A stretch of 64,000 nucleotides of DNA, taken from contig JBHGNT010000009.1 of assembly GCA_043228905.1 (NCBI GenBank), forward strand, positions 21,328,001-21,392,000. Direction: 5' to 3'. The position numbers and the translations under genes are program-made. Below, piece by piece: positions 1 to 50,544 of the stretch. Within the stretch, counting starts at the first letter, position 1. Every line of letters starts with the position of its first letter. Source of the DNA: Azolla caroliniana. Taxonomy: Eukaryota > Plantae > Polypodiophyta. A model generated the notes under the pieces. That model was not told the origin of the DNA. It saw only the letters and a list, made by a program, of their open reading frames with translations, and did not search any database.

Positions 1-3000
1 ACTTCCGTGTAGCCCGATGCTGGTTGTCGAGGCTGCTGTCGTAGACGAGCACCCAGTCACCTTCCTCGATCTTCTTCGGTCGGAGCCGGTGCGTTCGGTC
101 GAACCTGGCTTTGTTCTTTGTCCTCGCCACCCGGAGCTTCTCCGAAGCCAGCTCCACGTCCTCCGGTCTCCGCTCGAGTTGTCGTATACGCGCGGCCAAC
201 AACTCCTCCCGGCTCATCTCGTCCCTCCAGCCGACCGTTGCCCATGAGGAGATCGTCCGTTCCATCGGCATGATCGGTTTCTGGCCGAACATGAGCTCCG
301 TCGGCATGTACCCGGTTACCGAACTGTGCGTAGTCCGGTCTGCCCACAAAGCATAAGGTAGCAGCCGCGGCCAGTTACCGACTTGGCCTCCGCATGCCCG
401 AACCAACGCCTTGACGATCGGCCCGTGTCCGCGCTCCACCTTTCCATTCGCCTCCGGATTGTACGCAGTGGTGAGCGAGAGCTTGACTCCCAGCCGGTCG
501 AACAGCTCCGCGGCTTCTTCGGCGTCCAACTCCCCTCGGTCAGCCACGATCTTTCCGACACACCCGTACCGGCATATCACGTCCTCGATTAGGAACCGAC
601 ATACGGCCGCGGTCGTTTTGTTCTGAAGGGCTCGGCCTTCCACCTGGTTCGTCAGATCCTCCTGTGCTAGGACCAGATACCGCATCTGTCCTACCCCCAT
701 TGGCATCGTTACCAGATCTACCATCCATTTGAAGTGGATGGTCGGAGGGTACGTAGGGTGAAGCTCGTCCCGGTGTCGGACTACGGAGTGCATATGACAA
801 TTTTCGCAAGTCGTCACGAACCGACGCACGTCCCGGTACAATCCCGGCCACCAATACTTCCCCTTTAGTTTCTCGAATGTGGCCCACGTTCCACGGTGTC
901 CAGCCCAAGGGCTGTCGTGGTAGGCCGCCAGCAGCTCCTCCTGTTCCTCCTTCGTCGCCACCACCCGGAGCGGGACGCCGCTCCTCTTCTTCGGGTGTTT
1001 CCATAGATAGCCATCCCGGAGAAAGAAGCGGTATGCTTTCTTCCGGATCCGGTTGGCCTCGTCTTTCGTCCATGACGCATCCGGCGCCATTGTCCTCAAG
1101 AACCCGCCGATCCGCAGCCACTCCCCGTCGTACTTGCTCGCGTCGAAGTCGTTAAGCGCCGGAGTGCTCGTCCCGTCTGTTGTTACGTATGCTGCCTCGA
1201 AGAAGTCCACACCGACCTCTTCGTCCTCCGACACCATGCCGCCCTCGTCATCGAACCTCGCCCTCGAAAGCATGTCGGCCATGGCATTGTCTTTCCCGGA
1301 AATGTGTCGTATTTCTGGGTCCAGGGACTTGATGTACGCTATCCACCTGAGCATTGCCAGGTCCGGCGTCGCGCATCCAGAAACCATGCCGAGAATTGGC
1401 AGGCAATCCGTCTCGATAATCACTTCTGTCCCGATCAGATAGTCTTTGTCGGCCTTTACCGCCGAAACGATACCCCAGAGTTCGCGCTTAACCTGGGCGT
1501 ATCCTCGCTGCCGCTCACTAAGGACTTTCGCGCCGAATCGAATTGGAAACCGATTGCCGTCCTCGTCTTCTTGGTTGACGACCCACCCGATTCCGGTCGG
1601 ACTCGTGTCAACCGTTATGTATACTGGGGTGCCCTTCTTGTAGACGGCCTTCCGGAGCGCCGGTGCTGCCGAAAGAGCCTCCTTCAGCTTCCGGACCGAC
1701 TCCGTGTGCTCGTCAAGCCATTCGAACCTTCGCCCTTTCTTCAGCAACCCGTACAGCGGCTCCACGACGTGTGCGTAATGCGGGATCCATATGTGGTAGA
1801 ACGCGCATGCTCCCAAGAATCTTCGTACTTCCGTGACCGAGCTGCAGTCGGGCTTCATCGCGGAGATGGCTTCTACCTTTGCCGGAGACGGTTTCCGGCC
1901 ATATGGCCCACATAAGTGTCCGACCACCATGATTTCCGACTGCCCGAAGGCTGATTTCTCCCCCGAGAAGGTGAGCCTCGCATCCTCTAGCCTTTGCAGC
2001 ACCTTCTCGCAGTCGTCGATGTGCGTCGCCACGAATCGTCGGCATCCGTCCGGCCCGATCGTCTCGTCCTTCTCTGCTACCGGGCATCCCTTGATCGGGA
2101 CGTCGTCCAGAAACGGCATGGTGATGTCCGGGATGCAGTCCCTCAGAACCTTGTTCATTGCATTCACCATGTGGGCCACCGAGTTGGTCCCTCCTTGCGG
2201 CAGCGTACACATCCGCACTAGGCCGAGGGGAGTTCGTATCGTCGTGATGTCTCTGCTCTCCACGGCTAGCTGGAACTGGTCGTACCCTGAGTATAGATCA
2301 CCGACTGAGTAAATCGACCTTCCGGCGAAGGCCTCCGCGAACTCGTCTATGGTCGGTCCGATCCCTGCGTTCCGAATGGTCACCCTATTGACCGGTTGCA
2401 GGTCCTGAATGAAGCGCAATGATCCGTTTTTCTTTGGTACGGTAAACCATCGGTTTGAATACGGGGCGCTCGACGGCTCGAGAATGCCCATATCAACTTT
2501 CTGCTTCAACAGCTCCATCAACTTCGGGATGTGAGCTCTCGGAACCGGAATTGGCTTGAGATTCCACGGTACATGCGGTACCGTGAATATCACCATCGGC
2601 TCTACGATCGTCGGGTCTACGCACCCGATTTCCTCCGGTGAGAATGCGAAGGCTTTCCCGTGCCTTCCGAGCATTCTCCGAAACCGGTCTTCCTCCGCCG
2701 GTAGTAGGAACCCGCCCCCACCGATTTTGAGCTCCCGGAGCGTCTCGTTGGTGAAGGTGTGTCCTCTGCGGGCCGGATCTCGTAAACTGGGGTCTGACGC
2801 AACCCCTCTGATCCGGGACTCGGTGCCCTCCGGTAAGGGTGCCGCGACTGGCCTTACCTTCCGGTCCACAGTCTTGTACTTTGTGCTCACTCGGGCCGTC
2901 CGATCCGACCCGAGCCCCCGACTGAAGTCCGCGATGACTTCATACATTTCTTCGGAACATACCGGCATCGTCCGGTCTTCGTTAAGGTCTTCTTCGACTA

Positions 3001-3271
3001 CCTTCCCCAGCATTCCCAAGGTGTCGTCGAAGGAGACCGCCTCCACGGCTCCGTTGATTTCCTCGTCAGGGCCGAGAACTCCGCACGCTCGAAGTCTCCC
3101 CTCCGTCCTTGTCTTCTCTCGGCCGGCGATGCCGACTACCGTACATGCCCCGCTGTCGGAGAAGCAAAATTTCCTACCTATTGTACACGGTCTTATCGTA
3201 CAGATGTGAGGTTTTCCCGGAGCATCCGGACTGTCGCGGCCCCACGCCTTGGCAGTCCTCTCTAAAAATCC
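1..3271 (-). CDS. Gypsy-1 Pol (RT-RNase H-integrase), read in the -1 frame relative to gag-PR; runs off the left edge
   Basis: Frame opens at GGATTTT (3265-3271): GFLERTAKAWG...KYKTVDRKVRPV...PYSNRWFTVPKKNGSLRFIQDLQPVN...GDLYSGYDQF...FLDD. Missing from the ORF track, consistent with no stop before position 1 (not every codon checked). Confidence 0.85.
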
Positions 3272-5388
3272 TCTCGTTTTTCGGAACCGAGGGAGTCGCG
3301 GTTATGTTCGTGGTTCGGCCGTACCGTCAGAAACTGGACCGAATGGCGCCCGTCCTGGCTTTTGACCCTTGCATAGGCCGAACCGTTATTCAGCACCTTG
3401 GTCTCCATTCGCGCCGCCGTGATGTACAGCTCTCCCAATATTACCGGATGCGAGGACGTCTCCTGTACGAAGAAGTGTTGGTCAATTTCGACGTCGCCGA
3501 TCTTGACCCGTACGTTCGGGCAGGCCCCGTGCAGTTCCTCGGTGGCGCGCGTCGCCGCCCGTATCTTCCACCCGTGATTGGTGTTGATCGGCCATTTGCC
3601 CTTCTTGTAGAAGTCCATGGACATTAGGTTGATCTCCGAACCGTGGTCCACCAAAGCTACCACCGGTTCCTGGACATCTCCGATCTTCACCGGGGTTTCC
3701 GTGGTTGCTCGGGCCCAGTGTGGCCTCGAATAGTGGCTCTCCGCCCACTCATCTTCCAGCGACATGTCGTCTAGGTGCGTCGTCCGCACCTCTACCAGTC
3801 TTTCCGGTTCTACCTCCGTTGACAGCCTCTTCCGCTTCACCAAGTCCACGATGGAGTCGTGGAACTCCTTCCTGGCGATTCCTAGCACTTCCCGTAATGA
3901 TAGTTCCACCTTGCTGTCGAGGATCTGTTCTTCTAGGACCTTCCGCAGGTCCGTGGTCCTCTCTATTTCCGTCCCCAGTCGGTATCCGCCCTTCCTGGGG
4001 TTATCTTGCGCACTGGACCCGCCGGCCTCGTTCCGTCGTTGCCCGAACCGGGTCTCGTATCGTTGTGAGGGCCCGGTCGTTCCAGTTTTCCCCACCCGCT
4101 TCTCTTCTACCAGAGCCTCGTAGTTCTGGCAGGCGGCTTCCACGAAGCCCGTCTTTTCCTCGACCGGGTCGCTCCACCCGGTTATCTCCCGGACCCGTTT
4201 CTCCGCGCGGTCCGCTTCGTCCCCTTTCAGCCGCGTACCGGCGAGGCCTTCCAGCATCGCCGACCAGAATCCGGCTTTGCTTTCCTTTCGGGCCTCGCTG
4301 CCCCCGACCCGAATGCCGGCCGACGCCGAGTAGTGGACGGTTTCCGCATGTCGGGCCGCCGCCTCTTCCATCAGTCTCTTCATTCCTCCTCGCCCGTCGT
4401 TTCGGTTTAGGGCCCTTCTGGTGTCGCTGGCGTGCACCCGGCCTTCCCACAGGTACACCACCCGGTTCTTCAGCGCCTCCGCGAAATCGCCGCAGTCCTT
4501 CCGAATGTGGCCGACCTCGTCGCACCACATGCATCTGCTTCCCGCTGTCGGCCGTCGGTCGCGAGCCGGTTCGCCGCCTTCCCTGCGGGCTTGTGCAATT
4601 TGGAGGTCCTTTATCGCCCTCGTCAATTCCTCCAGCGTGGCTCCTCCGGTCGAGCCTCTGATCACGCCGGTCGAAGCTGAACCGGTTTCCAGCCACTCCC
4701 GGGTCTCTCCCTTTCGCACCGGCTGCGCCGGTTCAAGCTTCCTTGCTGCGACCAAGCCCGACCCGGTCGCCCCGTTATCCGCCCATTCTCGCCGCTTGTC
4801 GAAACGGCCGCAGGCTCTCTTAACCACCGCCCAGTCGGTCGTCAGCCCGTCTTCGGTTTCCAGCAGGGCGCCCACGTGATCCCGATCCCGCTCGTCCACC
4901 GACTTGACGAACAGTAGGACCCGGCTTGTATCCAGGATCGTTCGGTCAAGCGTCGAAAGGCGCACAAAGTTTTCCTCAAACTCCCGGAGGAGTGCCGACG
5001 CGTTTCTTCCCTTCCCGGGGGACTCCACCCATTCCATGAAGCTTCGTTTCGAAAGCCGGAGCGCGTCGTCCAGCCCGTATTTCTCTAGGAGCCGACCTTC
5101 AAACTCCTCCTAGGTACGGCTCTCCGCCCGCACCTCGAGCACCTCCGCATGGATGCTCGGCATCGCCACTCGGGGAAATCCGGCAAGACGCCTTTCTTCC
5201 GGAATGTCCCGCATCAGCATCTCTGCACCGTAGGACGCCAAGTACTTCGTGGCATCCTTTCCGCTGAATCGGCCGATTGTACCAACGACCGCCTCAATGG
5301 CTCTGTCGAGGGCGCCGGAGCCCTCGCGTGCGTTTACTAACCGGTCAACGGCCGAAGCCATGGCTTCTGCCAGATCCGATCCCCTCAT
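3262..5388 (-). CDS. Gypsy-1 Gag-protease ORF with one premature stop (TAG at 5110-5112)
   Basis: ORFs 5110-5607 and 3262-5037 share a frame; zinc knuckle CMWCDEVGHIRKDC; protease-like ALVDHGSEINLM and VILGELY. Confidence 0.9.
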
Positions 5389-5410: not shown

Positions 5411-5428
5411 TTCACGTCGGGTTCACCA
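5411..5428 (-). promoter_or_regulatory. Primer-binding site complementary to the 3' end of tRNA-Trp
   Basis: Minus strand TGGTGAACCCGACGTGAA, 3 nt after the LTR; complements the plant tRNA-Trp 3' end ...TTCACGTCGGGTTCACCA as I recall it. Confidence 0.85.
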
Positions 5429-5431
5429 AGA

Positions 5432-6109
5432 TGTCGTGTTATTACGCTAGTGCGTATAGAAACGAGGCGGGACCGCGGGGGTCTTGAACCGAAGAGCAAG
5501 CGAGGGTGGAGAAAGAGAGAGGACCGGTTACGCGGGACCGGGGATACACAGGGACACGGCCCTTCAACACAGAGAACGCGAACAGACGTCGACACAGGTA
5601 GACGCAAACAAATGAATATAAATGTATATATATGAGCAAATATCTGATCAAGAAGCTACAACCCGCGATGGGGCACAGGATGGTTACAACCGAACAGGCC
5701 GGCGAACAGATGCCGATGCCTGTTCGCTGCGTCGCACAAAAGGGAGCAGGTCGGAGGTGCTGCCGGAAGCACTCAGGCGTTCCTCGCAACAGCGCAAGCC
5801 TCCTCGAAAACCCTGCACAGGAAAAGCTATGGAGGAAAAGAAGGAGAACAGAGAGCGAAGCGTCCAGAATCGGTCCGACAGCACTTCGTCCTCTCTGCGC
5901 GATCCCCCCCGTTCTTCCCCGTCCTCCTCCTTTTTATCCGTCAAGAAGGAGCCGTTCGGCATTAAATTCCTACCTACCGTATCTAACCACTTCGATCCTC
6001 CTAGGTACCTAATTCGCCTCTATGTACAACCTGGCGCGCACGTGCGTGAAGAGCCGGTTGCCACGCCTCGGTGCCCCAATTCCACCCTCGGACGGTTTTC
6101 TTCACGACA
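5432..6109 (-). repeat. 5' LTR of Gypsy-1 (678 bp)
   Basis: Terminal inverted repeats TGTCGTG...CACGACA; directly upstream of the PBS; GC content drops sharply beyond 6109. Confidence 0.9.
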
Positions 6110-8659
6110 CCGTGCCAATATATTGAAAGTTAATTATGCAGTAAACATTCGTCAATAACATGAGCCTTCATATAGCCATACCCTGATTGATCTAGTTTTT
6201 AAAAACATCACTAGGTAGCATGAGGACCCTACAATCAGTCATGGGGATGCTTGTTTTAACTCTAGATATTGTTATTGTCACTCCATCTGAGAAAGTTGGG
6301 TGAATCGTGACCACATAATGATCGTGTACATTTTTAATTGCAGCATTAAGAGAATTTTGTGATGCCGTATGCGTAATAGTCATTAGAATTTGGCCTATTA
6401 GTTTGAGAAGACTTCCAGATATTATCTTCGTGTAACTGCTGGAGGTTGAAACTCTAAGCCACACACAACAGGGAATCTGGCGGAGCAAACATATTGATGA
6501 ATCCTTGCATAGCTCTAGTTACGAAGACACCAACATGGGTGAGAGTTCATGAGACAATGAGATGGATAATGATTGCTATTCCAATTTCCTATTCCAGAGC
6601 AATAGCACGGCATTTTAGTTTTTGTGGCCTGATAAATTTGGAAAGGACCTTTGCTCGAGAGATTTTCTCTTCTCCTAACCGTATATATTCATATATGCCA
6701 TGCTGGTTTGTTAGTTGTTCCTCGAACATGCTAGGCCCTGACATTGTCACACAACATTCAATCATTCTTTCTAACAATTTGGTCTTTTCCCCTTAGTAAT
6801 GATTTTCTGCTCAATGTGCACATCAAATTTCATGTTGTATCCCTCTTCCATGTATATCAGCATATGAGACACTTGGACATTTTGAACCAACATTTGGAGA
6901 AAGATACTTGCATTTATTAAAAAGAATACTTCGAGGCATTGGGGAATAAAGAAAAACTTGGTTATTTTTAGAGTTTTTCTCTATTTTAACCAGTTAGGGT
7001 TAAACTTATGAAAACCTAGATGGTGTGTATTGTCAGGTACTATTATTATTGTTGAGTACAAGCAAGCGATGAATGCAAGTACAAAATGCTCATTTTTGAA
7101 GAAGTCAATGGTTGTCTGCTCTTCAAAGGACACTTTGCTCCATGTTTCTTCTGTGATTATCCATTTGATTCAGTTGTTATATAATCCTCAAAAGGAAGTG
7201 TTAAGATTTCAAACTTCAATTCCTTTTGGGTATCAAAATGTATTGTCACTTTCTCATACTTATCTCTCTACATTTTTATTTCTTAGTCAGATGCTCAGAT
7301 AACTATCATTTTATATTTTTTGGAAAAAAAAAACTTTCATTTTATCAGTCTTGGACTTGATGCTTTTTTGAAGGACTAAGAAAGAACTCTTGCTTAAAAC
7401 GAGAAATTTGATGAACTTAGAGAAAATGAAGTGAAGAATTGTGATTAGGGATGTGTGAGCACTCTAGCTGAAGGTGAAATATGAGAATCGATTGATTAAG
7501 AAAGATTATCATTAAACTATGGTAACTAGAAAATCCTAACCATCCAATATATAACCCTCGTAAAAAAAAAAAGTTATTCTTTGACAACTTGCCATTCTTT
7601 TGATACCCTATGCGTTTCCAAAATGATGAACGGAACAAGGTATGGTGGCAAGACTTATGACAACTCTTAGTCTCAAAAGACTTTGATCACACCAAGGGGG
7701 TGTCTTCCCATAATGATGGGCCAATTGTTCCCACGGTGGATTCATACAAAGGTTGAGGTACATTAATAGATGATTGAGAATATATAATCTCCACCTGGAG
7801 ATTGGCATTGAGCAACAAATTGTCCTAGCCATATACCCAACACTCTACAATGGAAAAGTGTGGGCATGATCAACATTTGTCCCCACATGACACAATAAGA
7901 TGTTTCAATGATGTGGCTAATTTGATTTAAGAAATGTCTAGTGTGCAATCCCCATGGTGTTCCTTTTCTTCAATGACAAATGCTTTTGAAAGTTGTTCAC
8001 TACAGAACTACATATTTGCATGGAACTTGCATTCTATGCCCTCCCCCAACAATGTCCCTAGTTAGATTTCCTTAATGCACAATGGATCTTCTTTAAAGGT
8101 CACTTAAACTAGCCAATTTCCCCCCACCCTCATGACAATAATCCTATGAAAATCAAAATGCTAAGGTCATGACCAACTTTGTCAATAATGATCTTGAAAT
8201 ACCCAACTATGCATTGAAAGATTACTTTGAATCTTTATATTCTAAGTCACAACTACACTACTTGGGGCATCATTATCTATGTCAATATATGCCACACAAG
8301 GAGACAAATGATTGATCTTTTGATCACCATGCTACCCTCGTATCAACAAGACTTTGAAGCCATGGTTGATACACAACTTATCACCATGTTCTCTAGCAAC
8401 CTAAAAAGTTTTTGCAAAGTTGTGGTGCTGGTGCAAGACATTTCCTTGTCTATATTAAATGCCTATTGCCTCCAATATGATCATCCCCTCTCATACCATA
8501 CAATCAAATTCCCGATTGTACCATCCTTGTGAGAGATGCAGTGTCCTCACTTGTTCCAACCCTCTCCACCACTATGATCAAAACTTCACCCTCCATCCAA
8601 TGTGATGACACCTAAGGGAACAAAGGAAAATCTAAAGGTTGACTTGGCCATTGAACAAC

Positions 8660-26810: not shown

Positions 26811-28634
26811 GTTACATATGATTGACTAAACATGCATTTGGTCAAATGTTGGTCCTTAGACATGCTTTTGCTCATAAGTTTGTACCTATGCATCACTTTT
26901 CTATTCAAAATTTGAAAATTCAAATGTTGTGTGCTATTGGCCCCAACTTCCATTCTCGAATTTGTATCCTCATTCCCAAAATGTTCCTGTGCTAGGTAAC
27001 CATGCTTTGTAGCGTAGTGTATTTGATATTGATATTGCTTGGGAAGAAAGCTTTGGGGCTTGATTGCATCATTTATCAAATGTTAGATGTTCTTGAAGAT
27101 GTTTCTCTCATTGCACAAATTCCTTTGACATGGATCTAAAACCATGATTGAGAGTACAATCAACAATCACTACTATACTAGTGCTCTAGTGTAGTGTATT
27201 TGATATTGATATTGATATTGCTTGGGGAGAAAGATTTGGGGCTTGATTGCATCATTTATCAATGAACAATCACTACTATACTACTTGTGCACACGTTATG
27301 ATCAATTGAACTTTGTGCTAAAGACATTATAATAGTGAACTCTAATATTCAAGCTATGCTCACAACCCTTCCATTTAGATGCCCCATGAAAATTGGAGGA
27401 TGCACCATGAAAATTGGAGGCAAAATCTTACATATTCTAACTTGTGGTAAGGCAAGTCCAAGGTGGGAGTCTTGCCAAACTACTGGCGCACACAAGAGAT
27501 TGATAATCATTCAAATAAATGTTACAAAGATTTGCTACAAGAGCTCGAAAAAAATTGCTCTCAAACATTCAAAGCCACCATTGAAGAGATTATAACTGCA
27601 AATCCCCCTCGAAGAAGTTCTTGATGAAGACGAGCATTAAATTCTAGTATTCAATGAATTAGATTCAATGATATGAGATAGTGTTATTCATTAAGGTATG
27701 AAAAGGACAAGATCCAACGATGTGCATTGTAAAGGTAAAAACTATATATGTTATTATGGTTCAAATGGCTATATCATGATGTATCTGATTCACATTGTCG
27801 CATATACAAGGATGAAATACAAAATGATAAAAGGTTTAGGGTTTAGATTTCACAAAACAGTATTACTCGATACAAGACTTGTGCATTACTTCATACAAGA
27901 CTTGCACCATAAAATTGGTAAAAACCCAAAACTTTTGAGCTATAGACCTGAGCCATGGGTGGGTTATATAATGAGATCATTGAATATTCCTGCATAAGTC
28001 TAAGAAGATTAGAACCTTTTGTTGCTCAAAAATTATTTCTAGAGCTTTCTAAGAACTCCTAATCAATGCGAAAAAGCCATCCAAATTCCTAGATCAAGAA
28101 ATTTAGTGATTTTCAAGGTCTTGCGTGGCAAACTCATTTACTTAAAAGCTTCGAGAAAGATGTTGAGAAGAATAAGATAGAGTATGACACTGATCACAAC
28201 ACACCTAAACATTCAAAGTCCTTGCATGTACGCATGCCAAACAAAGGAGCTAAATGAACTCTTATCAACCACATTTCACTGGTGTGCATATCTTTACAGA
28301 TAGATAAATGTCCATCTATGGGCTACTTTACATAGTAACCTGTTGGAAAACAGTGAACATAATACCTTTTGCTATGAATTCCATTAAAAATGATCATAAA
28401 TACCTTTTTTAGATGAATCTCAATAAGAAATGTGAGGAGTGGAATTGGTACTAAATGTATTGCTTTTGGATTTTTAGATATCCCCCACCCCCTTCGCACG
28501 TACCTTTTGTTAGTGTCTGCTGACTGTACCATCTTCTCAATCATCGCCACAATCCTTGATTGATCATCCTTCCTTGATCCCACTTTGATCCTTATAGCTT
28601 TTTAGGGTCATGAGAAAGGCAATAGGATCATGTG

Positions 28635-34106: not shown

Positions 34107-37100
34107 CCCTCCATATTGAAACACTGCAAAACCTTAGAGATATACTCCTGCTGAGATAGAAAGAGTACCCCTTTCGATCGGTTTCGGAGTATTCGCATAC
34201 CAAGGATGTGATTTGCATCACCAAGATCCTTCATATCAAAGCTGTCATGAAGGCTTTGCTTCAATGAATCCAAGGCATGAATATCCTTGCCAGCAATCAA
34301 CATATCATCAACATACAAAACCAAGATAATCAAGCTGCCATCTCCTACCTTCTTGATGTACAAGTAGTGGTCTACTTGACTTCTACGAAAACCTTGAGAC
34401 CGCATAAATGCATCAAATTTATGATACCATTCTCTTGGAGCTTGTTTCAACCCATACAAACTCTTTTTGAGCTTACAAACCATCTTCTCTTTGCCTTTAG
34501 CCACAAAACCTTCATGTTGTTGCATATATATGTCTTCATGCAGATTGCCATGTAAAAAGGCGGTCTTCACATCCATCTGTATGAGCTCCATATCTTCAGC
34601 TACAACTAAGCCCAAAATGATTCGTAATGTAGTCATCTTGACTACAGGCGAGAAGATCTCATCAAAATCAACTCCATATTCTTGCTTGTATCCTTTTGCA
34701 ACCAATCTTCCTTTGTACTTTGGCGAGGAATCAGAAATGACCTTCATTTTATAAACCCATTTGCATGGAAGTGTTTTTTGCCCTTTAGGCAATTGCACCA
34801 AATCCCAAGTGTCATTTTTCTCAAGAGACTCCATCTCTGATAACATGGCTTTATACCATTTCTTATTGTCATGTCTGTCCATTGCTTCCTTGAAGCAAGT
34901 CGGTTCGCCACAATTAGTTACCATGACATAATTAGCCACACTGTTTTCATCAGGAACAAATCTGTCAGGCTATCTAGTAACTCTAGACGATCTCCTAACC
35001 CAATGCTCATTGTTTGGTAGTTGTTGAGCTTGCAAATCATCATTTTCAATTTGCAGTCCAGGCATTTCAGCTTGCAAATCAACATTCACAACTTATTGTT
35101 GTAGCTCTTCCTGCACATTTGGTGGCTCATCATTATTGGCAAAGGCTGGCTGATCATTTCCAACCTCATTTTTTGCATTTGCAGGTAATTTTACAATAGG
35201 TGTTTGTTGTTGTACAACGGGCACATTTTCCTGTCTAAAAGGTATTTCTTCTTGGAATACAACCCTACGTACTTCCTCAGTCTTTTCGGGTTGTTTATGC
35301 ATGCGATTTTCCCGGAAGATAACATCATTGCTGCGTACTATTTTTCTTTTCTCGGGATCCCACAATTTATACCCCATTTCACCCTCATCACCGTATCCTA
35401 GGAAAATACATTTGTAGGACTTTGGCTCAAGTTTGTTGCGTTCTTCTTTACGAATGTGCACAAAAGCCTCACAGCCAAACACTCTCAAGTGAGCATATGA
35501 AGGTGGCTTGCCCGACCACGCTTCTTGGGGTATTCCCCCTCCCAAAGACCTATGAGGTGACCGATTAATCAAGTGAATAGCTATCATAACAACCTCTACC
35601 CAAAAACCATGGGGTAACGCAGCATGAGACAGAATAGTACGGACCTTATCTTGAATAGTCCGAACTCCATTTTGGGGTGGATTATAAGGGGCAGTGAGTT
35701 CCCTCTTTATCCCTTTGCTGTCACAAAATGCTTGAAAAGCCTTGGACACATATTCCCCATCATTGTCAGAGCGAAGACACTTAAGTTTCTTATCAATTTG
35801 ATTCTCAACTAATGCCAAAAATGTTCAAAACTTGTCGAGCACTTCATCCTTGCTACAAATAGGGTAAACCCATACCTTTCGTGTAGCATCATCGACAAAA
35901 GTGACTAAGTATTTCTTTCCCCCTAATGATAGCCCTGGCATTTGACATACATCTGAATGTACTAACTCAATCGGGGACGACTTCAGCGAAAGAGACTTTT
36001 TATGAGATGTTTGTACATGTTTACCATAAATGCAATGATCACAATGTTCAAAATCTGCATAACGAAGGCATGGCAAGTAACCCAAACGAGAAAGTACTTT
36101 CATACCAATTTCACTCATGTGTCCCAACCAGCCATGCCACAAAGAAACACTAGGCTACTCGGTTATGGCAACAACATGGTCACTCACACTAAATACATGG
36201 AGAGGATACAAAGTATCACTTTTACTACCCTTTTCAATAACTCTAGATCCCTTACAAATCTTCCATTTCCCATCACCAAAGGTTGTGTGAAATCCATCAT
36301 CATCTAGTTGTCTTGTGCTAATCAAGCTCCTCTTGAGCTGAGGTACATGCCATACATGCTGAAGTGTGAAAGCAGAACCATGCTGAAACTGTAATTGCAC
36401 AGTGCCAATACCTGCAATTTCACATGCATAGTTGTCCCCAAGATGGACAACACCATGTCGACCCCCTGTGTAATCTGAAAACCACTCACGATGAGGAGTG
36501 ACGTGAAAAGAAGCACCGGAATCGAGTATCCAAGTGTGCATGTCACCATCCGTATCTGCAAGTAAGGCATGTTCTCTATGGCATGATGAAACAACGAGTA
36601 CATCATTTCCACTATCACTATCATGAGTGACTACATTCACCTCTTCAATTTTAGTATTTCCTTTCCTCAGTTGAATGTCTCTCTTTTCTTCTATGAAATC
36701 ATCTATCTTCTTGCCCTTTCCTTTCTCTTTCTTCCATTTCAAACAATCACGTTTAAAGTGACCTTTTCGCCACAGTGATGGCATTCTACATCTTTACCAC
36801 GTGATGTACTACGGCCATAACTATCCAATTTGCCTCTTTGTTGTAACCTACCCCTCATAAGAAACGCAATAGAGGACTTATTGGATGCATTATTTTGCTG
36901 ACTCATCTCTTCCATGAGTAGTGAACTCTCTACATCGGCATAAAGAAGCATCGCATTTGAATTGCTCATAGCAGTCCTGAAAGTATCCCAACTTTCTGGC
37001 AAGGTGCAAAGTAAAACCGTGGCCTTAAACTCATCATCAATGATGAATTTCAAGGCAACCAACTGGCTGAAAATGTAATTGAACTCACTCAGGTGAGTTG

Positions 37101-43617: not shown

Positions 43618-46139
43618 AGGCACGATGGCCCTTTATTCCCAACACCCCCTTCAAAGGTACGGGAGACCTGTTTATAAGGTAGACAGCCATCAACATTGCC
43701 TCAGCCCAATACGACTTTGGCAATTTTGTATGTGCCAACATGCGTCTTACCCTTTCCATTATGGTCCTATTCATTCTCTCCCAAACCATTGAGCTCAGGT
43801 GTCTTTATAACCATATACTCAAATTTGTTGCCTTGAGACTTGCAATACATCTCAAATTGGCCTCTATACTCACCACCATTATCTATCCAGATAGCATTGA
43901 ACTTTTGTCCAGATTCTCTTGTTGGCTTTGCATGAAACTCTTTAAAGACCGACAACACTTGGTCTTTAGACACCAACACAAAAGCCCACACATTTCTACT
44001 CAAATCATCGAAGAATTATCCACCACGGTGTGATGGGGCATCCACATAACACACATCTGTGTGAACCAGTTCTAGGGCATGCTCTCTTCTCATCGGAGGC
44101 CTGGAGTGAAAGATTGTTCTATTCTGCTTTCCAGCCAAGCAGTCCACACACTTTTCAAGGTGTATCCCTTTCACTTCTGGTAGGAAATCCTTTTCAGCAA
44201 GGATATGCATTCCCCTTTCGCTCATGTGCCCGAGCCTTTTATGCCACAACTCACCATTTGAGTCCCCCACAACATTTGCTTCATCTCGGCACATCACAGT
44301 GTGTTCTGTTTTTGAGCTCGAGCCACAATCAAACTCCCTTTACAGAACTTCCATGTACCATTACGAAAACCACATTGTAGCCTTCGTCGTCTAGCCGTCC
44401 ATCCAATATCAGATTCAATCTGACATCCAGAACATGGTAAACATCCCTCAACATTAACCTACAGCCAGTAGATGTTAGCAAACACACGTTTCCTATGCCC
44501 ACAATCTTGCATTCACCGTCATTTCCCATCCTTACGTAGCCATAGTCACCAGCTATGTAAGATGAGAAACATTCTCTTTTAGGGGTTAAGTGGAATGATG
44601 CACCGAAATCCACTACCCATGAGCACTCAGCATTTGCAAGATTCATACTAGCTTGTTCACAGATAAATAACATCTCTTCCTAACTAGTTGCAATGGCTGA
44701 GGTGTTTTTATCATTGGAAACTTTTCTAGGTTTGACCTTGTCAGTCATACCTTTGTCCTTTCTAAGGTGTCGACCATTCTTTTGGAAGTGGTCACCTTCC
44801 CACAATAGAAGCATGTAGGTCTTCCTCTAGATTTCGACCTTGCATAAAACCTATCTCCATTTTCGAGACTTCTGTGTTTGCTTCTTCCTCTACTAAGCTC
44901 TTGGGTCACATTAGCTTCTAATTGAGACAAGGCACTTTTATCCTTTCTTCTTGTCTCTTCATTTAAAATACTTGTCTTTACTACTTGTAAAGATAGATTG
45001 TCTTCTTTACATGAGGTATTGAGTGTCACTATTAAGTTTTCCCAACTGTCAGGTAGAGTACATAGTAGTAGTGTGGCTTGCATAGCATCATCTAATGGGA
45101 ACTTCGTTGATGCTAACTGATTCACCAGTCCCATGAGCGTACTAATGTGCTCTACAATGCTCTCCCCATCTACGTACTTTTAGTCTCACTATTTTCCTCA
45201 TTAGGGAAGTTTTATTTAGAGTATTTTTCCTTTCATAAAGTGCAGAGAGTTTATGCCATAACTCGGAGGCATTGGTATCACTTGCTACATGTTGTAGGAT
45301 GCTAATGTCCACACACTGTCTTATAGTTACCACTGCCTTTCTATGTAGAGTTTTCCATTCAGATTCTATTACCCCTCTAGGTATGTCTTCCTTTTCTATA
45401 GGCTCATACAGATCTTTGACTATCAAAAGATCTTCCATTTTGATCTTCCAGTCTGAGTAGTTTTGTGAGTTTAGGACAATCATCCCTAGAAAGCTACTCA
45501 CATTCCCTTCCATCTAGAACCTAGGATCTTATACCAGTTTGAAAGATTTTACTCAGACGTAAACCATAATATACTGAGACACAAACAAAACGAAAAACAA
45601 GGAGCACACGATTTACGTGGAAAAACCTGATTTCAGGGAAAAACTACAGCAAACAGAAATTTCCACTATGAGACAAGAAGAAATACAAACATGGAATGAT
45701 AGAACCTGATTTGGTATGGATGCACTCTCAAGTTGTTATCTAAAACCATAGTTTTAGCCGAGTGCACCAAACCCTAACTCGTAGGTATCTGTCACTTTTG
45801 AAGCTTCCAAAGCTTCTCTGTTCTATCTCTCTTTCTTCTCTATTTCACTCTCGTTCCTTTGTTTCCTCTCACGCTCTGCTTCTGAGCTATGTCACTCGCA
45901 CAACCACTACTGTGTTAGCACTCTATCGTTCTCTGTATCACTCTACTCTTGCAATACGTTCACTTACACCTCACGCGCTCACTTACTTAAGTTCACTTTC
46001 GCACTTTTCTCGTTGTTTTTACTCTTAGTGAGTTATCCCACATACAGACCGAATTCGGGCAGCCGACTCTTGTTTCGGCTTTTCGACCAATTTCGGCCAG
46101 CCGACTCTCGTTTCGGCTTTTCAACCAATTTCGGTCAAC

Positions 46140-49100
46140 CGAGTTCATTGCACCTTGAGGTAAGGTACACATCCGCACGAGCCCGATTGGAGTCCTCATG
46201 GTTGTAATGTCACAACTGTCGATCGCCAATTAGAATTGGTCATATCCGAAGTAGAGATCACCAATGGAGTAGATGGACCGGCCCGCAAACGCCTCGGCAA
46301 ATTCGTCCACGCTCGGACCGATTCCAGCATTTCGAATTGTCACCTTGTTGACGGGTTGAAGATCTTGGATGAATCACAATGATCCATTCTTCTTCGGCAC
46401 CGTGAACCACCTATTAGAGTAAGGAGCATTCGACGGTTCTAGAATACCCATATTCACTTTCTCCTTTAAGAGCTCGATTAGCTTCAGAAGGTGCGCTCTT
46501 GGAACTAGTATCGGTTTCAAATTCCAAGGTACGTGTGGCACCATGAAGATCACCATCGGCTCTATCGTCCTTGGATCAGCACATCCGATTTCTTGTGGGA
46601 AAAATGCGAAAGCCTTCCCATGTCACGAAACATTCGCTCTTCTTCAGGGGAGAGGAAATCCTCCCTTCCAACTCGCAACTTTCCCTTCGTCTCTTCGGTG
46701 AAGATATGACCTATCGTCTTCAAATCTCTTAAGCTTGGATCGTTAGTGACTTCCTTCATCTTTTGCCAGCTATCTTCCAGTAGCGAAACCGCAACTGGCT
46801 TGATCTTCTTATCCACCATTTTATATTTTGTGTTGACTTCAGCTTCCTCCATCAAGATGCCACGAGAGTATTCATCGATGATAGCGTACATGTTGACGGA
46901 GTTAACCGAAATCACGCGTTGGTCGTGAAGATAGCTCAAGTCCACGACGTCCTCAATTTCGCCGATGGTATCGTTAAATGAGGCTTCTTCCATAATATGA
47001 GTCACGAACTCTTCTTCTTCTATTATGTTTTCTTCTTTCAACATCTTCTCGAATTCGTGTATCCGACGCTTGTCCTTCTTGTCGGGTAGTACTAGTTTAC
47101 ATGTGCCACTAGGTGTGACACATGTTGCTTCTCCTCGCAATCCACGCGCTCTTCTTTCTTGTGGGAACTTCTGATCACTCGGACTATTTGTGCCCCATGC
47201 TTCCATAGTCCACTCTAAAAATCCGAGGATTCGCCTCCAAGACTATCTCGATTCCTTTCATGATTAGCTCGCACCATTAGGAATTGAACAAATCTTTGGT
47301 TGTCAAGACTCTTTATTCGAGCAAATGCCGCACCATTGTCGAACACTTTGGTTTCCATCCGAGATTATGTGATATACGGTTGTCCTAGGATGATAGGATG
47401 CGATGCCGATTATTGCACAAAGACATGTTGATCCATCTCCATATCCCCGATCGCGACGTTAACATTGGGACAAGCTACGTACAAGTCCTCTGTAGTCTTT
47501 ATTGCCGCACGAATCTTCCATCCGTGATTTGTATTGATTGGCCATCTTCCTTTTTTGTAGAAGTCGGTTGCCATGCGGTTGATCTCCGAGCCGTGGTCGA
47601 TCAAGGCTACCACGATCTCTTTCTTCTCCCCGATCTTCATTGGCGTCTCTGTTGTCGCTCGTGCCCAATGAGGTTGAGTATAGTGGTTGTCCACCATTTC
47701 GTCATCGACTTCGTCTCTTGCCATCGTTATGGCATTTGCTTTCGCTTTTAGGGGCTTCTCTTCTTCTTCGTCCGATTGTTGCCTTTTTCGCTTTACAAGG
47801 TCCACGATCGTGTCGTGGAACTCCTTCTTTGTAATGCCGAGTAGTTCCCTCAAGGACAAGGTCATGTGGTTGTCAAGAACGCGTTCCTCGAGAATCTTCT
47901 TTAGGTCTGTCGTCTGCTCTATGTCCGACCTTAGCTTATAGGTAGGCATAGTCCTTGTCTTTCGAGCGGGGTCTTCGACACCAATCTTCACGGGCCGAAC
48001 CGTTTCTTCGACTCGTTTGCTCGACTCCACTTTTCGGCTAGCATCTCCTTCCTCCATTTGTAAAGATCGACTCGTTTCTGCATCTTCTTTATTTTTCATG
48101 TTCCTTGTTTCATGTCTTTTTGATGGGCAAGCTCTTCTATTCTTTTTCTCTTTTCTTCGACGAACACCTCGTGGTTGTCGCACATCACTTCCGCGAGTAT
48201 GGTGTTGTCGTCCACCGGATCCGACCACCCGGTTATGCTTTGCACACTTCGGTCTGCAAGCTCTACCTCGTTCGATGTGACCTTCCCCATCTTCTCATAC
48301 TCAAGAACGGAAGACCAAAACTTTGCTCCCACTTTCGCAGCTTCATTTTTGTCCCGACTCTTATTCCGGCCGTTGCAGCATAGTGCATCGCATCCACATG
48401 AGTTACCTCAACATCTTCCATAGATTTCTTCATTCCCCCTCTTCCAAAATTCACCCGTAGGGGTTTTCGAGTTTCAGTCGAGCAGATCATGTTGTCATCT
48501 ATGTATACGATATTTTGTCGGATCGCCTCTCGAAGGCTCGCGCAATCCCTTCTCATGTGGTCCATGCTATCGCACCACGCGCATCTAAAGGGTTCTTTTC
48601 CTTTGGGCCCCCGACGATTCATGTTGGCTAGCGTAACCATCTCGAACTTCTTCACTAGCTCTTCGATGATGTCATCATCAATCTTCTTTTCTTTCGGGTT
48701 GCTTTGTTTGGGCGGCTCAGCTACTTTCGGTTGTCTAGTTTTCTCCGCAACAATCGATCCCGCTAAGTCGATGTCATCGACCCACTGACAACACTTGTCG
48801 AGCCTATTGCATGCTCGCTTCACCGCGACCCAGTCCGCCACAAGCTCGTTCGCTTGGGTATCATCTTCGAGGAGAGTACCCAGTTCTCATCTATCCTTTA
48901 TGTCCACAGCCTTTAGGAAGTACAAAGTTTTGTCCTCCTCAAGTAGCACTTGGTCTGTGGCGGGGAGACGACGAAACATTTGGTCGAATTCGTCGTACAC
49001 CCTCGAAGCGCTCATCTTCTTATTCTTCTTTTCTATTCACTTCATCAAGGCATGTCGAGTCATCCTCGACAAATCTTCCGTCGCGAACTCCGCTAATATC

Positions 49101-50544
49101 GCTTTCTCAAACTCCGACCACATTGTCTCCCCTTCTTGAAGCTCGATGACGCACCTTTGGATGTTGTTGGCGACAACTCTCTTGAAGCTTGTGATTTGAC
49201 GTGCTTCAAACACGTCCCTTTGATTCATCTCCCTTTTGTATGCATCGAGGAACTTCGTAATGTTCCTTCCATCGAATTGACCCTCGAGCTCCACGACACG
49301 GTCGACGGCCTTCTCCACACTCGCATCGTTGTCTCGAGATCTCATCATTTGTTCGACGATCAACATCATCCTTTCGAACTCTCCTGCTTGGTTGCTTGAG
49401 GACGCCATCTCCAAGTATTGGTCTCAACTTGATCCTTCCTACTGCCTCTTTCACGTCGAGTTCACCGCTTAAATATGTCGTGAAGATCCGTCACTACGTG
49501 CGGATCGCGAGGCGGAACTGCCGGGGTTCTAGACCGGAAGGATTCAAAGTTGCACTAGCTTTAGCGAGAAAGAAATTAAGACAGATTGGAAGAGAGAGAG
49601 ATTGAGATAAGATAGAACGCTTGATTTTAGATTAAGAGAGAGCTTAAGATTGGACCCTTGACTTTAGTTTTAAGAAACAAGATACACCATCAATTGGACA
49701 ACGAATTTTTCTTCTTCTTAAATTCGTGAATTACATTCTATTCTTTTACCTTTTCAATTGTTACATTCATTTCCTACCATCTGTCTCTTGGGTCCCACAT
49801 TGGTTCTCAACGCAACTGCCCAAGTCTCTAGTTTTAAGAAACAAGATACACCATCAATTGGAGAACGAATTTTTCTTCTTCTTAAATTCTTGAATTACAT
49901 TCTATTTTTTTACCTTTTCAATTTTTACATTCATTTCCTACCATCTGTCTCTTGGGTCCCACATTGGTTTTCAACGCAACTGCCCAAGTCTCTAGATACC
50001 ACCGTCCATCTCTTGGGTCTCACGTTGGCTTTCTACAACTGCCCAAGTCTCCGCACATAGACACTCCCCTACCATCTGTCTCTTGGGTCCCACGTTGGTT
50101 CTCAACGCAACTGCTCAAGTCTCTAGATGGAGTGTCCTACATGGGTATCACCATCGTCCATCTCTTGGGTCTCATGTTGGCTTTCTACAACTGCCCAAGT
50201 CTTCGAAACATGTGTGCTCCTCACATAGACACAAAGGTAATAGCTTTTGCTCTGCCTTATATATGGTGGGATCTTTATTTGTCCCGTCGATGTGGGATAT
50301 CACATATTTTTCTCTTCTTCTTTGTAAACTTCATACCCACATAACTTGACACTTAGATGTCTATTTCCTACGTAGTAAAGTACATTCAGAAGCTCTTCAA
50401 GACCTCCATCTCTTTGTACCACGATATTAAACTTATTTAAAATAGTATCCTTACTATTATTGTTTTATATTTCGTGAGAAGAACCACACTCGATTTCGTA
50501 TGTTCCTTACAAGTTTCACACTATCGCCGAAAATCTTCAAGACA
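46140..50544 (-). mobile_element. Ty3/Gypsy 'Gypsy-2', relative of Gypsy-1; truncated within RT
   Basis: LTR 49476-50544 (TGTCTTGAAGA...TCTTCACGACA); PBS CGGTGAACTCGACGTGAA; knuckle CAWCDSMDHMRRDC; PR ALIDHGSEIN; pol KYKMVDKKIKPV...LPQGAMNSV. Confidence 0.9.
49665..50203. repeat. Tandem and hairpin repeats within the Gypsy-2 LTR
   Basis: About 165-bp duplication plus five copies of a CTTGGGTC..CA..TTGG...CAACTGC.CAAG unit. Confidence 0.8.

Follow-up and report, generated by a model that had tools for sequence, protein, structure and literature searches.

How is Pol made in a retrotransposon whose protease lies at the end of its first open reading frame (ORF1, Gag-PR) and whose pol lies in another frame? 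This question is raised by a Ty3/gypsy element on the minus strand of the window (the whole stretch of 64,000 nucleotides of Azolla caroliniana DNA that was analysed). Plant retrotransposons have been described as mostly single-ORF elements in which the Gag/Pol ratio is set by splicing (PMC5580714). For the Gag-PR/Pol junction of this Phygy-like element, we propose a pseudoknot-stimulated -1 slip on G_GAU_UUU, and for a sister family, which has AG_GUU_UUU and a 5-nt spacer, a slip of -2; we put the probability of this reading at about 0.85. Comparison of copies established the layout, the frames, their conservation, the covariation of the stems, the (predicted) protease fold of ORF1 and the purifying selection on pol.

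The element and the cassette in the window

The whole element is 7074 bp long. Its features, and those of a second element, are as follows.

6110..6113: target-site duplication (TSD) CCGT, of NCGN type, identical on both sides
5432..6109, minus strand: 5' LTR, sharing 99.1% identity with its 3' counterpart, which lies upstream of the window
5412..5428, minus strand: primer binding site, complementary to tRNA-Trp(CCA)
3262..5388, minus strand: ORF1 (Gag-PR), with zinc knuckle, DUF4100 and the protease at about 3720-3320
1..3271, minus strand: pol ORF in the -1 frame, with a linker of about 125 codons, RT, RNase H and integrase
3265..3271, minus strand: slippery heptamer G_GAU_UUU (GGATTTT), the final two Gag-PR codons, Asp-Phe
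3259..3264, minus strand: 6-nt spacer, opening with the ORF1 stop TAG (3264-3262)
3228..3258, minus strand: stem 1, a 31-nt hairpin, from pairing and covariation
3240..3245, minus strand: 5' strand of stem 2 (GUGGGG), within the hairpin loop
3206..3211, minus strand: 3' strand of stem 2 (CCUCAC, with one G-U pair; the majority of sister copies read CCCCAC), giving a predicted H-type pseudoknot
47162..47224, minus strand: cassette of element 2, a degenerate truncated element, with the heptamer at 47224-47218, TAG at 47217-47215 and the hairpin at 47211-47181
47197-47193 with 47166-47162, minus strand: stem 2 of element 2

The window copy of ORF1 contains a single in-frame stop (5112-5110). Meanwhile, pol is open for 1171 codons from 3301 and continues beyond the window start, and its RT, RNase H and integrase were assigned by Pfam. 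Read on the minus strand, element 1 gives G GAT TTT TAG AGA, followed by the 31-nt hairpin (3258-3228). The sequence-only reading had ended Gag-PR at G GAT TTT TAG, continued Pol in the -1 frame and begun a hairpin 6 nt after GGATTTT; the ORF1 C-terminus (EDF, then the stop) and the overlapping pol ORF were both seen, and the hairpin coordinates agree on the minus strand of element 1. In addition, a second element with the same heptamer, stop and spacer length had been claimed and is present at 47224-47181, and the compensatory change from G-C to A-U between the two elements is real and falls on pair 6 of the stem. The known layout of a dianthovirus-type heptamer and a 5-9 nt spacer plus structure is found here as well, the structure being predicted. 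However, the suggested loop partner GCTCC (3223-3219) is specific to its own family, where 35 of the 49 loci carry it, compared with 5 of 164 in other families, and we replaced it by CCYCAC, 16 nt past the hairpin (3211-3206).

Within the window, the 12-mer GGATTTTTAGAG has two exact matches and one with one mismatch, against 0.47 expected; the last of these, at 28468, does not match the element at the protein level. The window hairpins alone fold only modestly better than shuffled sequences (z -1.67 and -2.68; 0.03 for the 77-nt context), and thus the case for the cassette rests on comparison. A search of Rfam over 3100-3400 gave no matches at E ≤ 5.

The C-terminal 152 residues of ORF1 have a predicted retroviral-type aspartic protease fold (pLDDT 81), and its top structural matches are Ddi1 and retroviral proteases (best E 8e-7). 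Because the Pfam protease match of the window sequence is under the cut-off (E 0.0064) and a PDB sequence search with the protease gave no matches, the protease call rests on this predicted fold. With the predicted protease in the ORF1 C-terminus, the frame junction therefore falls downstream of it, which is where the sequence-only reading had set the shift. Furthermore, the protease motif is D-H-G-S-E (window 3648-3640, minus strand) instead of D-T/S-G, and its His is conserved in at least 90% of alignment A1. The motif might serve to tune down a protease that would be made one-to-one with Gag.

The named homologues of ORF1 come from Physcomitrium, Riccia and Adiantum, and those of Physcomitrium have 59-70% identity in the protease region; no relatives turned up among viral contigs. 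The Phygy lineage (Neumann et al. 2019) has an NCGN TSD, a tRNA-Trp primer and a length of 7656-9968 bp, and its ORF organisation is listed as ND in the supplement (PMC6317226). The window element shares with it the 4-bp NCGN TSD (CCGT on both sides), the tRNA-Trp primer site and the close Physcomitrium homologues, and we assigned it as Phygy-like Ty3/gypsy from the TSD, the primer site and the homologues. Elements of both are short; the window copy (7074 bp) is below the published range, and the -2 family measures 7898-8003 bp.

Some further observations concern the surroundings of the element. The 3' end of tRNA-Trp, the primer of the element, has 64 matches genome-wide, with tandem clusters at C8:17.80-17.82 Mb (spacing about 1.2 kb), C16:4.99-5.11 Mb and C5:10.11 Mb; tRNA-Trp genes were confirmed at the three loci examined, all outside the tandem clusters. 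Element 2 (46137-49460, minus strand) is degenerate, with ORF1 split across frames and pol truncated early in RT, and its cassette is nearly intact. Locally repeated blocks lie upstream of it (49660-50200, judged by eye), and a degenerate copia-like gag-pol fragment lies at 44000-45520 (minus strand, judged by eye). A weak integrase-like match (35444-35953, minus strand; 27% identity, E 9e-6) marks another old retroelement remnant.

Conservation of the site, the frame and the predicted pseudoknot

The metagenome sample comprised the best 80 of 173 loci, which were picked on protease sequence only, to avoid motif selection, and 77 of which came from one assembly series. Pol occupied the -1 frame at 58 of these loci and the +1/-2 frame at 4, and 18 loci lacked it, so that the -1 frame was found in 58 of the 62 loci containing pol. 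[quoted passage not shown] In addition, the 18-nt core pattern GGATTTTTAGAGNGGACT had 969 exact matches genome-wide and its reversed-pattern control had none. GGATTTY stood immediately before the stop in 65 of the 80 metagenome loci, where the stops were TAA in 28, TAG in 26 and TGA in 11. Thus, UAG after the heptamer, as first described, is right for the window but is not a general rule.

The heptamer is of X_XXY_YYZ type in the zero frame, and in the -1 frame pol can be read across the site without a stop; G_GA is an accepted variant of XXX in -1 slippery heptamers (PMC5009743). Across 22 families, the mean top-letter share of the heptamer was 0.94 versus 0.42 in each flank, and the spacer was 6 nt long in 20 families and 5 nt in both -2-frame families. 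At the protein level, 93 of 120 ORF1 homologues, entries from Physcomitrium, Riccia and Adiantum included, had ends that fit the site: 70 ended in [DGN]F, 21 in F plus five residues and 2 in VF plus one residue. A search of 50% clusters for ORF1 homologues returned mostly fragments; the 33 sequences with the anchor motif ended in xF (11), F plus five (6) or F plus one (1), ran on (11) or ended otherwise (4). In the class with five residues after F (L139, L163, L166 and L168), heptamer, spacer and hairpin are unchanged, and the ORF1 stop falls within stem 1. Physcomitrium and Adiantum proteins share an ending five codons past the slippery site.

For the analysis of RNA structure, the cassette was obtained for 213 of 229 loci, the other 16 having no callable heptamer or too little sequence, and these were grouped into 27 clusters. 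Alignment A2 holds 22 undamaged representatives and is nearly gap-free; the damaged L114, L181, L206, L216 and L222 were excluded. In stem 1, 90% of 220 cells were paired (28-46% in slid controls), and both sides had changed in 8 of 10 pairs. Its covariation score was 0.492, versus 0.273±0.026 after shuffling (reached in 0 of 500 shuffles), and 31 cells had changed on both sides versus 11.2±3.3. Furthermore, RNAalifold recovered the stem 1 helix.

For stem 2, the loop pairs with a segment 11-16 nt past the hairpin in 22 of 22 families (4-8 bp). The score with the family's own partner was 344, versus 283.5±11.5 with swapped and 234.5 with shuffled partners (0 of 100,000 permutations), in a test whose windows were picked after data inspection and which ignores relatedness between families. 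The mean score was 15.6 at the true offset versus 7.1-10.2 at 17 alternative offsets. No more than 8 of the 22 families gave their own partner the top score, as stem 2 mostly pairs a G-run with a C-run; pairs of different sequence include GCAGGGA/UCCUUGC, GCGAGA/UCUCGC and AUGAGGGU/ACCCUCAU. Since the 3' strand lies at 11-16 nt, its codon phase varies; the encoded peptide varies too. Stem 1 and stem 2 are predicted to form an H-type pseudoknot.

The check proposed at the outset, an alignment of copies with a covariation analysis, thus showed the heptamer and stem to be conserved and the stems to covary across 22 families. With conservation also of the phase, the spacer length, the 31-nt stem and pol's -1 frame, the proposed interpretation as -1 frameshifting gained support, and we consider such frameshifting highly probable in the main class. 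Most ribosomes would terminate at the ORF1 stop and release Gag-PR, and the protease would thereby be made one-to-one with capsid. The pseudoknot, 6 nt downstream, would make the ribosome stall while the heptamer occupies its P and A sites, and in a minority of ribosomes both tRNAs would re-pair at -1, giving Gag-PR-Pol with RT, RNase H and integrase.

Pol could also be reached by splicing, as in Ogre, with TTTTTAG as the 3' splice site or with a CAG/GT donor in the sister family. TTTTTAG is like a plant acceptor and CAG/GTT like a donor, as is generally known. However, 39 of the 65 metagenome loci have TAA or TGA where this AG would directly follow the T-run, and the spacer has no AG in 4 of 22 families. 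In Ogre, a non-coding gap separating GAG-PROT from RT-RH-INT is removed as an intron, whereas here the ORFs overlap and such a gap is absent; in addition, the linker reads open, and its dN/dS of about 0.25-0.6 shows purifying selection. PolyA reads, which at the junction came from related copies, none of them 99% like the window copy, showed no joint across the junction and no dip in depth (depth about 7-14). Thus, we regard splicing as very improbable.

Hardly more probable is a role of the structure in packaging, dimerisation or reverse transcription, with Pol arising through reinitiation or low-level accidental slippage. Conserved retroelement RNA structures can serve such roles, as is generally known, and a second role would be compatible with frameshifting. 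However, the phase of the heptamer and its fixed 6-nt distance from the stem are kept in 20 families. Pol has no conserved Met (the position of its first Met ranges from codon 3 to 111), which speaks against reinitiation, and coding constraint acts on the linker that lies upstream of RT. Transcriptional slippage was rejected by reasoning, as the T runs of 4-6 are short and the fixed spacer would be left unexplained.

The sister family with pol in the -2 frame

A sister family, which the sequence-only reading had not noted, came to light in two metagenome loci, where the junction reads CAG GTT TTT (G/T)AC TAG GAC, followed by the same hairpin one base closer. The sister family thus has an AG_GUU_UUU site, a spacer of 5 nt and not 6 nt, and the same predicted pseudoknot. 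It has 98 matches in the genome (control 0), of which 88 carry GAC. Of 30 genomic copies fetched, 24 had pol in the -2/+1 frame, as did both metagenome loci; of the other six, three had pol in frame 0, two in frame -1 and one had no pol match, and these copies look indel-damaged. When 30 copies were chosen by DNA similarity, the site was present in every one. In the GAC variant, the -1 frame meets a TGA stop two codons in.

The hairpin keeps its phase in pol and lies one base nearer the slippery site, and the shorter spacer together with UU_UUU would let the A-site tRNA pair again two bases further back. After the shift, site and stem would be 7 nt apart in both classes. In the common variant, a -1 slip would hit a stop at once, and therefore only a -2 (or +1) shift would reach pol. 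For a -2 slip, the P-site tRNA would re-pair poorly (GUU to AGG), which also holds for arteriviruses.

A +1 shift would serve equally well as far as the frame goes, since DNA alone cannot separate +1 from -2, and UUU_U in 10 of 98 copies and in L136 would permit a +1 slip of tRNA-Phe. However, 88 of the 98 copies have UUU_G, which offers no good +1 re-pairing, and the site matches RG_GUU_UUU, the purine included. In addition, the pseudoknot is kept with covariation, and the spacer has changed in the direction predicted for -2. We therefore take +1 shifting to be unlikely and a -2 shift to be the likely one in the sister class.

The least probable alternative is that a one-base deletion left the sister family dead and that it was multiplied in trans. 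Non-autonomous families can, as is generally known, spread on the enzymes of helpers. However, both metagenome subfamilies have 985-987 open pol codons in the -2/+1 frame, and between them dN is 0.105 and dS 1.18 over 975 codons; the resulting dN/dS of about 0.09 indicates purifying selection and thus a pol in use. Nine full-length copies of this young family, which were selected for open pol, have LTR pairs of 99.4-100% identity. Both ORFs are open in 5 of the 9 (734-736 codons of ORF1 and 1154-1155 of pol), and most of the nine have NCGN-type flanks, some ends being not cleanly called. RNA data for the family amount to 10 reads and 1 contig, which leave the junction uncovered and are uninformative on splicing.

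The result of phylogenetic analysis showed that the sister families formed one clade (100/100) among 23 -1 rows, in a tree that took in 25 of 26 rows, was midpoint-rooted and had weak inner support (84/90). A -1 ancestor and the direction from -1 to -2 follow on this tree by parsimony only. We find it reasonably likely, slightly less so than the -2 shift itself, that the lineage turned a pseudoknot-driven -1 shift into a -2 shift through the loss of one spacer base and the adoption of an arterivirus-type site. Furthermore, L164, a single low-coverage contig, has G_GUU_UUC with a 6-nt spacer and pol in the -1 frame, and its frame fits a control by the spacer.

Relation to known systems and meaning for the lineage

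In animal -1 gypsy elements, the shift separates gag from a pol that includes the protease. The PEG10 shift lies between gag and the protease-bearing pol (PMC7212762). Animal Ty3/gypsy elements with -1 frameshifting and PEG10 have a heptamer, a spacer and a pseudoknot between overlapping ORFs (PMC5009743). The same layout between two ORFs is found here, the pseudoknot being predicted; however, the protease of the plant element lies upstream of the shift. Protease upstream of the shift is known from alpharetroviruses, where it is in frame with Gag (PMC3185560) and a -1 shift gives access to RT/IN (PMC5009743). The gag-pro/pol junction of alpharetroviruses (RSV/MAV) and the pro-pol junctions of MMTV and HTLV likewise place the protease with Gag and a -1 shift before RT/IN. 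The present case differs from alpharetroviruses in being a plant Ty3/gypsy element with G_GAU_UUU, a linker of about 125 codons before RT and the D-H-G protease motif.

Dianthoviruses and umbraviruses use G_GAU_UUU with a nearby stop (PMC5009743). The heptamer is identical here and a stop is close by; however, the stimulators of those viruses pair about 4 kb away, whereas the partner here lies 11-16 nt past the hairpin. Where the 2016 review turns to plant cases, it gives only +1-frame ones, from a 2003 survey (PMC5009743), and a moss gypsy expression paper, in the parts of its text that bear on these elements, mentions neither frames nor ORFs (PMC7466625). In the open-access literature searched, we found no account of this cassette. 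What is new in the main -1 cassette is the lineage; the proposed mechanism is known.

The -2 site of arterivirus nsp2TF is RG_GUU_UUU (PMC5644247), and a -1 slip there meets an immediate stop (PMC5644247, PMC5009743). The sister family likewise has RG_GUU_UUU, an ORF in the -2 frame and, in its common variant, a stop that a -1 slip would reach at once. However, the arterivirus stimulator is a protein complex on a C-rich motif without RNA structure, whereas the sister family has a covarying predicted pseudoknot 5 nt downstream. The sister family resembles arterivirus -2 frameshifting in its putative working and is not a member of that system. For -2 shifts, the review names phage Mu, arteriviruses and Trichomonas virus 1 (PMC5009743). 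Our search of the open-access literature found no natural pseudoknot-stimulated -2 shift in a retrotransposon. For -2 shifting, the best spacer is 1-2 nt shorter than for -1, also with pseudoknots (PMC3458567). In the U6A spacer series of Lin et al. (2012), a spacer shorter by 1-2 nt favours -2 (PMC3458567), as proposed for the sister family; that series consists of laboratory U6A constructs, whereas the pair here would be one of natural sister lineages with different heptamers.

With this cassette, an abundant plant lineage would gain a virus-style pseudoknot frameshift (predicted), whose single compact structure comes in 22 natural versions. In addition, pol in the +1 frame of retroelements may conceal a -2 shift. 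Between the two sister cassettes, -1 and -2, spacer and heptamer each differ by a single base, and therefore the spacer-tension model of shift size could be tested with natural signals. If the -2 reading is true, the sister family would offer a natural case of structure-stimulated -2 frameshifting in a retroelement of eukaryotes, and would put the mRNA-tension model to an evolutionary test.
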